Below, in pieces: positions 56,210 to 59,633 of a stretch of DNA of 64,000 bases. The notes under the pieces were generated by a model. The model worked only from the letters and a program-made list of their open reading frames with translations, had not been told where the DNA came from and ran no database searches. The stretch comes from an uncultured Gemmatimonadales bacterium (GTDB lineage: Bacteria; Gemmatimonadota; Gemmatimonadetes; Gemmatimonadales; GWC2-71-9). How positions within the stretch are numbered: position 1 is the first letter of the stretch; each line of letters begins with the position of its first letter. The position numbers and the translations under genes were made by a program. Location of the stretch: positions 1,632,001 to 1,696,000 of the forward strand of contig CAVZZO010000001.1 in assembly GCA_963779755.1 (NCBI GenBank), in the 5' to 3' direction.

Positions 56210-56593
56210 TTACTTCACGTGCTTGTTGACCAGGCTGGTCATCTCGAACATGGTGACCTTGCTGCGGCCGCCGAACACGACCTTGAGGTTTTCGTCGGCG
56301 TTGATCATCCGCTTGTTGACCTTGTCCTGCAGGCCCTTCCGCTTGATGTAGGCCCAGAGCTTCTTGGTGAGCTCTGTCCGCGGCAGGGGATTGCTGCCCA
56401 CCACGGCCGACAGCGCGGCATCGGGCTGCACCGGCTTCATGAATGCCGCATTGGGCTTGCGGGCAGACTTCTTCTTCGCCGCCTTCTTGGTGGTCTTCTT
56501 GGCCGCGCGCTTGGTGGCGCGCTTCCGGGTGGCGGACTTCTTGGTGGACTTCCGGGCGGACTTCTTCGCGGCCTTCTTCTTCTTGGCTGCCAT
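56210..56593 (-). CDS. SWIB/MDM2-domain protein with histone H1-like basic N-terminus
   Basis: Lys/Ala/Arg-rich tail followed by AFMKP...PRTELTKKLWAYIK...LQD...MFEMT. Confidence 0.9.
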   Translation of the reverse strand: MAAKKKKAAKKSARKSTKKSATRKRATKRAAKKTTKKAAKKKSARKPNAAFMKPVQPDAALSAVVGSNPLPRTELTKKLWAYIKRKGLQDKVNKRMINADENLKVVFGGRSKVTMFEMTSLVNKHVK

Positions 56594-56808
56594 CACGCTC
56601 TCCCGGTTTGGAGTGATTCAGACCGACATGTCCCTCGGTACCGCCTCTACCACGGGCACCAAATTACTACTTCCCCCGAGCGGCGCCAATAGGGAAACCT
56701 GCTAATTTCCCTCTGAGAGGCCCTGGCCGCCGCCCGCCGCGCCCCCGGAAACGGCGCTGCCGGACGCCGGCGACACCCGTTCACCCCCCCCTGCGCGGGA
56801 GCCCCGCC

Positions 56809-58047
56809 ATGTCGTTTCGCTCTACGCTACCCTGGTTCGCCGCGCTCCTGCTCCTCACTTCGGGCGCGTCCGCTCCTCCCTCCTGCGGGGCCGACAACGC
56901 CGGCCTGGTGCTGCCCCGGGGCTTCTGCGCCGTGCTGGTGGGCGAGCAGCTGGGCTCGGTGCGCCACCTGGCCGTCGCGCCCAATGGCGACATTTTCGCC
57001 TCCGTCTCCGGCGCCCATGGCGGGGTGCTGGCGCTGCGGGATACCAACGGCGACGGGCGCGCCGATGTCACCCGCCGCTTTGGTCCGGGCGGCGGCACCG
57101 GCATCGCACTGAGCGGCGATCATCTCTACTTCGCCACCGATGACGCGGTCTACCGCTGGCCCTGGAAGGCGGGCTCGCTGGAGCCGGCCGGCCCCCGGGA
57201 GACGATCGTGCACGACCTCCCGGCGGGGGGCGACCACAGCGCCAAGAGCATCGCGCTGGGGCCGGACGGTGCGCTGTATGTGAACGTCGGATCGGCCACC
57301 AACAGCTGCCAGCGGCAGAACCGCGCCAACCGCTCGCCCGGCATCGAGCCCTGCACCGAGCTGGAAACACGCGCCGGCATCTGGCGTTTCGACGCCAACC
57401 GGACGGGCCAGACCCAGGCGGACGGCGTGCACTGGGCCACGGGCATGCGCAACACCGTCGCGCTGGCCTGGGATTCCGGCTCGAGTGCGCTCTACGGCGC
57501 CATCCACGGCCGCGACCAGCTGGGACAGAACTGGGGCTACAGTGACGAGGACAACGCCGAGAAGCCCGCGGAGGAGTTCGTCCGGATCGGCCGCGGCAGC
57601 GATATCGGCTGGCCCTACTGCTACTATGATCCGAAGACCGGGACCAAGGTGCTGGCGCCGGAATACGGCGGCAACGGCCGCGACGTGGGGCGGTGCGCCG
57701 GAAAGCAGCCGCCGCTGATCGGCTTCCCCGGCCATTGGGCGCCCGACGGGCTGGTCTTCTACCACGGCCGCCAGTTTCCCGCCTCCTACCGGAACGGCGC
57801 CTTCATCGCCTTCCACGGCAGCTGGAACCGCGCCCCCTTGCCTCAGGCGGGCTACCGTGTGGTATTCGTACCATTCGATCAGGGCCAGCCGGCCGGCCGC
57901 TACCGCACCTTCGCGACGGGGCAGGCCGGCCCCACATCCATCCGGCCCACCGGACTGGCCGTGGGCCCGGACGGTTCGCTCTATCTCGCGGCCGACGGCA
58001 ACCACCGCATCTGGCGGATTCTCTATCAGCCCGGGGAGGGCTCATGA
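56809..58047 (+). CDS. Exported sorbosone/PQQ-dependent sugar dehydrogenase-family beta-propeller
   Basis: Signal peptide, DTNGDGRAD, GMRN, GWPYCY, HWAP, AFHGSWNR, RPTGLAVGPDGSL. Confidence 0.88.
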   Translation: MSFRSTLPWFAALLLLTSGASAPPSCGADNAGLVLPRGFCAVLVGEQLGSVRHLAVAPNGDIFASVSGAHGGVLALRDTNGDGRADVTRRFGPGGGTGIALSGDHLYFATDDAVYRWPWKAGSLEPAGPRETIVHDLPAGGDHSAKSIALGPDGALYVNVGSATNSCQRQNRANRSPGIEPCTELETRAGIWRFDANRTGQTQADGVHWATGMRNTVALAWDSGSSALYGAIHGRDQLGQNWGYSDEDNAEKPAEEFVRIGRGSDIGWPYCYYDPKTGTKVLAPEYGGNGRDVGRCAGKQPPLIGFPGHWAPDGLVFYHGRQFPASYRNGAFIAFHGSWNRAPLPQAGYRVVFVPFDQGQPAGRYRTFATGQAGPTSIRPTGLAVGPDGSLYLAADGNHRIWRILYQPGEGS

Positions 58048-58610
58048 AACCAGGATCAATTGCTGCCGCGGCCCTGTGCTGCGCGGCGCTCACCACGCCC
58101 GCCGCGGGGCAGGGCACCCCGCTTCAGGCCGGCGCACCGGCGCCGGACTTCGCGCTCCAGGGGGCCACGCAGTCGGGCGTGCTGCCCGATTCGGTCCGGC
58201 TCAGCGACTTTGCGGGGAAGACCGTGGTTCTCGCCTTTTTCTACCAGGCGCGGACCAAGGGCTGAACGGTACAAATGGAGGCGTACCGTGATCAGTACGC
58301 CACGCTCTTCAACGGCGGCCACGATGTGGTCCTGCTCGCCCTCAGCACCGATCCGGCCGACACCCTCGCGGCGTGGGCCGCGGATGAGCATTTCCCCTTC
58401 CGGCTCCTCAGCGATGCCGGCGGGCAGGTGGGGGCGCGCTACGGTGTGTACCTGGAGAAGGGCGGAGTGGACAGCCGGGTGATTTTCGTGATCGGGCCCG
58501 ACGGCAAGATCGCGTTCCGCCAGGCTCCCTTCCGCGAGCTCGATCCCTCCGCCTATCGCATGCTGGCCGCCGCGGTGGACAGCGTGTCCGGAGCCGGCCC
58601 GGAGCGCTGA
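58044..58610 (+). CDS. Exported peroxiredoxin (BCP/AhpC-TSA-like), probable selenoprotein with in-frame TGA at 58263-58265
   Basis: GAPAPDFAL...LSDFAGKTVVLAFFYQARTKG*TVQMEAYRD...SRVIFVIGPDGKI in one frame; TGA lies at the peroxidatic Cys position. Confidence 0.85.
58266..58289 (+). promoter_or_regulatory. SECIS-like hairpin
   Basis: ACGGTAC-AAATGGAGGC-GTACCGT immediately 3' of the UGA. Confidence 0.55.
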
Positions 58611-58627: not shown

Positions 58628-59203
58628 ATGCAGCAGATCAAGGGCAATGTACTGCGGGCCCGCATGGATTTTGTCCGGGAGCACTTCGGCGACCAGGGCA
58701 TGGAGCGGGTGCTCGCCTTGTTGAGCCCCGACGACCGGCAGGCACTGCGCTCGGTGCTCACCATCAAATGGTATCCCTTCGCCCTGGGCCAGCGGCTGGA
58801 TGCCGCCATCGTCCAGGGCCCCGGGCAGGGCCGGCCCGAGCTGTTCGAGCGGCTGGGCGAGGCCTCCGCCAGCCGCAATCTGCAGACCCTGCACAAGGGA
58901 TTCCTCTGCCCCGGCGATCCGCAGGCCTTTCTGGCCAAGGCTCCGGTGATCTACGATCTCTACTACGAGACCGGCAACCGGACCTACCAGCGCAGCGGTG
59001 AGCGGGAAGGGGTGCTCACCACCCACGATGCGGAAACCTTCAGCGCGCCGGACTGTCTTACCGTGATCGGCTGGTACCGGCGGGCGCTGGAGCTCTGCGG
59101 CGCTCGCGAGGTGTCGATCACCGAAGAGGAATGCCGCGCCAGCGGCGGCACCGTCTGCCGCTATCGCGTTCGCTGGGCCGGCGTCGAGGGCCCGCCGGCC
59201 TGA
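58628..59203 (+). CDS. TIGR02265/DUF2378-like protein with V4R-like C-terminus
   Basis: IKG..L, WYP, EECRASGGTVCRYRVRW; AGGAGG RBS. Confidence 0.7.
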   Translation: MQQIKGNVLRARMDFVREHFGDQGMERVLALLSPDDRQALRSVLTIKWYPFALGQRLDAAIVQGPGQGRPELFERLGEASASRNLQTLHKGFLCPGDPQAFLAKAPVIYDLYYETGNRTYQRSGEREGVLTTHDAETFSAPDCLTVIGWYRRALELCGAREVSITEEECRASGGTVCRYRVRWAGVEGPPA

Positions 59204-59267: not shown

Positions 59268-59633
59268 ATGCGTTCGTTTCTGCTGATCCTCCGGCGTCCC
59301 GCCTGGCTTCTGGCTGCGGCGCTGCTGCTTCCCTTGCCGCTCACGGCCCAGGCGACTCAGGGCCGGGTGGTCCGCCCTGCGGCTCCCCGAACCCTGCAGG
59401 CTCCTGCCGGCCGCATCCAGCGGCGCGAGCTCCGCGCCGACCGGCGTGACCTGCGCCTGGACCGGCACCACCTCCGCCTCGACTACCGTGGGGTGCGGCG
59501 CTGCCGGCTGGATGGCCGACCGGTTCTTGTGACGCGGGCCCACCGGCACCTCCGGCTCGACCGCAGGGACCTGCGACAGGACCGGCGCGACCTGCGCCAG
59601 GACCGGCGCCGCTGGCGCAGTCCGGTGATCTGA
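59268..59633 (+). CDS. Small secreted Arg-rich protein with DRRDLR heptad repeats
   Basis: Signal peptide; repeated (L/Q/A)DRRDLR units. Confidence 0.6.
   Translation: MRSFLLILRRPAWLLAAALLLPLPLTAQATQGRVVRPAAPRTLQAPAGRIQRRELRADRRDLRLDRHHLRLDYRGVRRCRLDGRPVLVTRAHRHLRLDRRDLRQDRRDLRQDRRRWRSPVI

Follow-up and report, generated by a model that had tools for sequence, protein, structure and literature searches.

Organization of the locus

The window analyzed here is a 64,000-nucleotide stretch of DNA from an uncultured Gemmatimonadales bacterium, and all positions refer to it unless a contig is named. On its forward strand, positions 58044-58610 form a single reading frame with one internal TGA (58263-58265, codon 74), and readthrough of this codon gives a protein of 188 aa; the joining of two listed ORFs through the TGA, proposed in an earlier note on this DNA, was therefore correct. 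In the ORF list the frame is cut into a piece that ends at 58265 and a 111-aa piece (58275-58610), which gene callers start at an internal ATG (Met78, 58275-58277). In the protein collection, too, the gene is represented by its 111-aa C-terminal piece, and relatives appear as N-terminal pieces of 83 aa, two of the four being named hypothetical. As these records illustrate, the suggestion that standard pipelines would miss the gene is right for general gene callers, but probably not for selenoprotein-specific searches.

The AhpC-TSA profile (PF00578) matched residues 30-158, across the TGA (E-value 1.2e-27; 96.8 bits vs a cut-off of 26). None of the NCBIfam models matched the 188-aa protein at its cut-off, the top one being PrxU (NF040737), with 78.5 bits vs 270. 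The AF2 model of the protein (mean pLDDT 90.5, low at the termini alone) has a thioredoxin-like peroxiredoxin (Prx) fold, and 1-Cys AhpE is the nearest solved structure both by sequence (E-value 1e-13, ~33% identity) and by fold (TM 0.72 on the query). On the basis of these profile, sequence and fold matches, 58044-58610 is assigned as an AhpE/BCP-like Sec-peroxiredoxin gene with the AhpC-TSA/Redoxin fold.

The active site reads Y67-Q-A-R-T71-K-G-U74. Homolog alignment and retention of the TGA place Sec74 at the peroxidatic position; in the alignment, Thr71 (58254-58256) belongs to the TxxU motif and Tyr67 (58242-58244) occupies the Pro position of PxxxTxxC. Arg145 (58476-58478) lines up with the region around the catalytic Arg of AhpE and does not vary among the 61 family members aligned; it is probably the catalytic arginine. 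The only Cys residues other than position 74 are residues 12 and 13, inside an N-terminal hydrophobic stretch. Thus, the retained distal Arg, the lack of another Cys in the mature part and the replacement of Pro by Tyr were all described accurately in the earlier note, and the last of these, a passing remark there, is the most informative feature. Two other arginines, Arg70 (58250-58253 region) and Arg82, are invariant in 120 of 120 full-length records, Sec and Cys forms alike, and the position of Arg70 is Phe or Asp in other peroxiredoxins.

A glucose/sorbosone-dehydrogenase-like gene lies upstream (56809-58047, forward strand; ORF list and profile match) and overlaps the peroxiredoxin start by 4 nt, and the two genes are likely co-transcribed in this genome. 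A promoter scan found no promoter. The idea of a conserved operon was discarded, as this neighbor is present at only 18 of 155 loci. Also nearby are a TIGR02265/DUF2378-like gene (58628-59203, forward strand), a gene for a 121-aa signal-bearing Arg/Asp-repeat protein without a family match (59268-59633, forward strand) and, on the reverse strand (56210-56596), a gene for a SWIB/MDM2 domain protein with a histone-like Lys/Ala-rich N-terminus.

Decoding of TGA as Sec

The earlier note had linked its reading to the presence of Sec machinery and had named a UGA-reading tRNA-Cys as an alternative. The genome contains selA (526 bits), selB (325 bits), the tRNA-Sec gene selC (69.7 bits) and a selD gene with an in-frame TGA of its own, all above cut-off; its only tRNA with a UCA anticodon is tRNA-Sec, and its only tRNA-Cys reads GCA. 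Homologs, proposed in the same place for inspection, have TGA or Cys at the catalytic column: the codon was TGA in 107 and TGC in 3 of the first 110 loci, and 117 of 119 full-length homolog protein records have Cys (the remaining two, Trp or Leu). The relatives are Gemmatimonadota wherever a phylum is given, and 221 of the 251 sampled genomes of this phylum had a match at 1e-22 (a tally that includes one unpublished genome, G170, used for no other result).

The TGA form is also coupled to selA. Among the 176 genomes tested for selA, 132 carry the TGA form, and 130 of these had the gene (the other two genomes are 94-95% complete); selA was not found in 29 of the 31 genomes whose only close match (E < 1e-35) has no TGA; 13 genomes with no match or a distant paralogue only were excluded from this contrast. 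In genus g40, one genome has both the Sec form and selA, and in nine genomes without the TGA no selA was found.

Some database records have Trp at the catalytic column, and a hairpin such as that downstream of the TGA is not unusual by itself; both observations could be taken to mean that the TGA is a nonsense mutation or a sequencing error, or that UGA encodes Cys or Trp in these organisms. However, the TGA is kept in well over 100 genes and is coupled to selA, genes here (including the peroxiredoxin gene itself) end in TGA, the UCA anticodon occurs on tRNA-Sec only, and one of the Trp records clusters with the 83-aa N-terminal fragments, as expected of a gene caller that used another code. 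Such explanations are already largely refuted and appear extremely improbable. Because the machinery is present and the TGA is conserved and coupled to selA, and because the hairpin is conserved at synonymous sites (see below), these sequence comparisons indicate that the TGA is almost certainly read as Sec in this gene.

SECIS element

The hairpin (58280-58301, forward strand) was identified by folding and conservation. It has a 7-bp stem (58280-58286 paired with 58295-58301) and an 8-nt loop (58287-58294) with G at position 2, and the loop begins 21 nt past the UGA. The stem and the loop G were as previously described, but the hairpin does not follow the UGA directly, being separated from it by 14 nt. 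The description of this element as an atypical SECIS also did not hold. The bSECIS model, as given in Fig. 2 and section 5 of PMC13188914, specifies a loop of 3-9 nt, a stem of 4-16 bp, a G in loop positions 1-2, a distance of 16-37 nt from the UGA and an MFE <= -7.5, and the hairpin falls within all four constraints (8 nt, 7 bp, G at position 2 and 21 nt), with -11.8 kcal/mol. It is therefore a typical bacterial SECIS element.

The stability of the hairpin was ruled out as evidence for recoding, as it was no better than that of shuffled sequences (z = -0.69; 40 of 200 shuffles fold equally well), and in the genome 990 of 39,989 open-flanked TGAs have a hairpin of at least 6 bp with a G-led loop. 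The element is significant because it is conserved, not because it is stable. Its inner 6 bp are paired in 138 of 138 distinct TGA genes vs 2 of 17 Cys genes, and synonymous codons that are otherwise rare occur in the hairpin region (CGT in 133 of 138 TGA genes, background 9%; GAT in 135 of 138, background 32%). The outermost (foot) pair covaries across TGA genes (GC in 71, CG in 29, UA in 6 and AU in 4; unpaired in 27), although kin in the sample are not independent, so that the shuffle control overstates this. The loop varies only in GU/GG or in one later base, the G at position 2 being followed by U here and by G in 5 of 138 relatives. Thus, both stem covariation and hairpin conservation, which had been suggested as informative, were observed, with the hairpin lost in most Cys genes. 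A further bias affects a codon of the spacer ahead of the stem, that for Gln at +3 (58272-58274): CAA is used there by 116 of 138 Sec genes, vs a background of 11% and a single one of 17 Cys genes.

Proline at position -7 in Sec and Cys forms

Sec and Cys forms differ in the residue at position -7. In the pooled DNA loci, 160 Sec genes lack Pro and 9 have it, vs 40 Cys genes with Pro and none without (about five of the Cys rows are more distantly related paralogues, and no row was obtained for one locus). Because the initial sample had been ordered by similarity to the query, which bears Tyr, 54 lower-scoring genomes were added. Sec forms of this Gemmatimonadota family mostly have Phe or Tyr at -7, i.e., the motif [FY]xxxTxxU. 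At the protein level (119 records), Pro is present in 115 of 117 Cys forms, and two record clusters combine Cys with Tyr or Phe. In a small control, the same DNA pattern with Cys was used on viral contigs; 9 of 35 loci were peroxiredoxins, and all 9 have Pro.

Eight of the nine Sec-Pro genes fall in one clade with Cys-Pro genes, and Sec therefore tolerates Pro. The relationship is asymmetric in that Cys is almost always paired with Pro. We lean toward the view that Pro is tied to sulfur chemistry. The choice of Pro codon was considered as a trace of recent origin from TTC or TAC and was uninformative (CCC in 9 and CCG in 8 genes vs background 38% and 53%, respectively).

With Tyr67, this protein lacks the strict PxxxTxxC/U motif; the Thr at -3 and the distal Arg are present. 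In PMC3322552, PXXXTXXC is termed absolutely conserved, and PrxL, in which the conserved residues are missing, showed no detectable peroxidase activity. It could be argued from this, from the lack of a resolving Cys and from the extra invariant R70 in the active-site loop that the Sec protein is real but, without Pro, serves mainly as an envelope thiol/selenol oxidoreductase or a peroxide sensor and not as a peroxidase. This is quite improbable, however, considering that Thr and Arg are kept, that the fold matches AhpE and that close Cys orthologues have the full PxxxT/SxxC, so that the family behaves as a peroxiredoxin. The protein is predicted to work like a Prx even though it falls outside the strict motif, since its Cys orthologues carry the motif, and it probably has peroxidase activity.

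Phylogenetic analysis and direction of change

Trees were built from 146 columns by quick and FastTree methods after the motif and SECIS positions (-7 and 0 to +13) had been masked. In the masked trees, Cys-Pro rows were scattered at many places among Sec rows. The tree of 142 genome-labelled rows had 12 Sec/Cys and 11 Pro changes, with eight independent pairs, of which 6.6 changed the same way and none the opposite way (sign test, median p 0.016). In the 283-row tree, there were 25 Sec/Cys and 23 Pro changes, with only five well-supported pairs (median p 0.125). The AU test rejected a single Cys clade (p 9e-5; 62 rows, a subset chosen after the first tree had been seen).

The alignment is short, many forks are open, and the two forms coexist in some genomes (as tandem copies in genus g61). 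It is conceivable, then, that the coupling of Pro and Cys is a tree artefact, in which a single ancient Cys-Pro paralogue was disseminated by transfer or by conversion of the active-site segment and no repeated change took place. We regard this as unlikely: the masked trees follow taxonomy and unite the Cys-Pro with the Sec-Tyr genes of genus g53 (clade support 95), the AU test rejects Cys monophyly, and in genera g40, g53 and g26 the Cys forms occur where selA is missing.

One 22-nt element is common to all Sec genes, and a single Sec origin with repeated Sec-to-Cys loss is therefore favored over repeated gain; this direction, which we infer on a weak root, is the more likely one. Previously counted conversion events for Prx were zero Sec-to-Cys and five Cys-to-Sec (PMC1794560, Table 1), whereas the Gemmatimonadota family suggests repeated Sec-to-Cys change.

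Other Sec-peroxiredoxins

When metagenomes and viral contigs were scanned for the motif, with the Gemmatimonadota family excluded, at least 129 loci were obtained, at least 121 of them TGA-peroxiredoxins. Among the 121 matches listed, the -7 residue is Pro in 95 and another residue in 26, and the idea that Sec-peroxiredoxins generally lose Pro was therefore rejected. A second family, in which most proteins carry a signal peptide and a Cys lies ~99 residues downstream, accounts for most of the 26 listed; its named records come from Acidobacteriota, and loci L230, L272 and at least about 25 others of L202-L322 are members, with Val or Ile for Pro. Among the matches listed, 22 of 27 TGA loci of this family lack Pro, which is present in 54 of 57 Cys records (of 120 records, 15 were unparsed). 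A further 48 records have Trp at the catalytic column, all without Pro, and this Trp is probably a UGA misread by gene callers. None of the NCBIfam models scored above cut-off with this family. In the joint tree (FastTree, many open forks), the two non-Pro groups are separated by Pro-bearing lineages. Sec thus permits Pro loss, which occurred at least twice, but does not require it.

The nascent chain can influence termination, and the -7 residue might be chosen for translation, such that a non-Pro aromatic residue in the ribosome tunnel favors Sec insertion over termination while Cys forms keep the catalytic Pro. The Sec-specific synonymous bias near the UGA and outside the stem (CAA at +3, 116 of 138 vs 11%) indeed suggests that translation constrains this region. 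Yet the nine Sec-Pro genes keep an intact hairpin, 95 of the 121 other Sec-peroxiredoxins among the matches listed have Pro, and the second family uses Val or Ile rather than aromatic residues, all of which make a translational role of the -7 residue rather doubtful. A role of Pro in sulfur chemistry remains the preferred explanation.

Probable export and the possible electron donor

A probable cleavable signal peptide covers about residues 1-22 (58044-58109), with a predicted cleavage point, and contains the only two Cys. It was recognized by a hydrophobicity heuristic and by low pLDDT (55-58 over residues 1-20 of the AF2 model); with the same heuristic, an N-terminal hydrophobic stretch was detected in 112 of 120 full-length family records. 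These are the two observations that speak for the export claimed in the earlier note, and they suggest that the protein is very probably exported to the envelope.

Cys is absent downstream of Sec in 109 of 110 loci, consistent with the proposed enzyme with one Sec and no resolving Cys, and an outside partner is therefore needed to resolve the oxidised enzyme. Convergent ccdA-like and signal-bearing WCxxC tlpA-like genes were found downstream at 55 of the 131 Sec loci having a 1.5-kb flank and at none of the 17 Cys loci; the pair lies on the strand opposite to the peroxiredoxin gene and is absent from 76 of the 131 Sec loci, and kin among these loci are not independent. In this genome the pair is located elsewhere, not adjacent to the gene (56% and 48% identity). 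A related system is PprX of Caulobacter crescentus, an exported BCP/PrxQ-like peroxiredoxin which, according to PMC3322552, is reduced by TlpA and a DsbD-family transporter (ScsB to TlpA to PprX), similar to the line proposed here. PprX has Cys, PXXXTXXC and a resolving Cys, whereas our protein has Sec and no second Cys, and the neighboring transporter is of CcdA type. By analogy with PprX and from the gene neighborhood in relatives, TlpA/CcdA is a somewhat favored candidate for the electron donor.

Comparison with known selenoproteins

Sec-peroxiredoxins are a known selenoprotein family (PMC13188914, PMC9312934 and PMC1088965), and peroxiredoxins of the envelope have also been described. As summarized in Table 1 of PMC13188914, the 'Prx' Sec family (PF00578/COG1225; PrxU of Eubacterium acidaminophilum) shares with the present protein the AhpC-TSA assignment, Sec at the peroxidatic position, TxxU and a SECIS just 3' of the UGA. 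The motif reported there for 'Prx' is a highly conserved PxxxTxxU, vs mostly [FY]xxxTxxU in the Gemmatimonadota family; our protein also differs from 'Prx'/PrxU in its probable signal peptide and in scoring below the PrxU cut-off (78.5 vs 270 bits). AhpE, the best sequence and fold match, likewise has a single catalytic residue, but it contains Cys and Pro and, according to PMC8113037, is recycled by mycothiol/mycoredoxin, in contrast to Sec and Tyr here. A parallel is found in MsrB: according to PMC1278935, residues conserved in the Cys enzymes do not occur in the Sec enzyme, which can do without them, and they rescue its Cys mutant. However, MsrB has another fold, and its case concerns three residues and one vertebrate Sec lineage, as opposed to one residue and many natural bacterial switches.

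The Gemmatimonadota genes may be catalogued in BSepDB as 'Prx', because its input list, in the supplement, includes Gemmatimonadota genomes. The accessible main texts of PMC13326102 and PMC12013277 do not mention this phylum, and a literature search, which did not extend to subscription journals and BSepDB, found no paper that deals with this Gemmatimonadota family, with the loss of Pro from Sec-peroxiredoxins or with the coupling of Pro to Cys. As a case of recoding the gene is ordinary; of use to a specialist is the repeated pairing of Cys with Pro and of Sec with Phe or Tyr.

A model for Pro in selenium- and sulfur-based peroxiredoxins

Our explanation as a whole, that the locus is one Sec-peroxiredoxin gene, that its product is exported and that Pro is dispensable with Sec, is likely to be correct. 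Judging from conservation, SelB bound to the hairpin 14 nt past the UGA would deliver Sec-tRNA and thereby allow synthesis of the 188-aa protein, which the signal peptide would take to the envelope. By family resemblance, Sec74 together with Thr71 and Arg145 would reduce peroxides and be converted to selenenic acid. Recycling of Sec74 would fall to an external dithiol, for which a periplasmic WCxxC protein of TlpA type, itself supplied by CcdA, is the most likely candidate. The Pro of PxxxTxxC would be needed with a sulfur catalyst and dispensable with selenium, although both the direction and the chemical cause are presumed. Lineages without Sec decoding hold Cys together with Pro.

A broader scenario is credible, if somewhat short of probable. 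It posits that an exported Sec ancestor across much of Gemmatimonadota swapped Pro for Phe or Tyr, and that each loss of Sec decoding led to Cys and to Pro regained by a two-base change, about ten times; the Acidobacteriota-like family would have behaved likewise with Val or Ile. The 'invariant' Pro would then serve sulfur chemistry only, and the whole would represent a replicated single-residue epistatic switch served by CcdA-TlpA.

The choice between selenium and sulfur in enzymes is an open question, usually tested by artificial Sec-to-Cys swaps. Here, natural pairs differ by two residues (Sec with Tyr or Phe vs Cys with Pro), and both intermediates exist; four point variants of the 166-aa domain would directly test this question. 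The data also point to a selenium-based envelope peroxide defence in a common environmental phylum, in a gene that general annotation holds as two fragments.

Additional peroxiredoxin genes and related observations

A scan of the whole genome for selenoproteins by coding potential recovered the present gene as well as another peroxiredoxin; since SelD escaped it, the scan is incomplete. Matches to molybdopterin oxidoreductase in this genome had no stop inside the matched stretches. A second TGA-peroxiredoxin gene lies outside the window (G000:C1:1839393-1839761, forward strand); it keeps Pro and has no evident signal peptide and a weaker hairpin. Two identical tRNA-Sec genes were found in an 8.2-kb stretch that two contig ends have in common at 99.4% (G000:C3:1-8222 and C4:1-8209), which is probably an assembly overlap. 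On the reverse strand of G000:C3:598700-600458, a ccdA-like gene and a tlpA-like gene (the latter at 599281-599703) are followed by a peroxiredoxin-like gene with Ala for the catalytic Cys in the matched stretch. Distant Gemmatimonadota paralogues with Ser or Gly for the catalytic Cys are present at L144, L146 and L149, and loci L183, L373 and L386 of genus g61 contain tandem Sec and Cys copies, with Pro in both.
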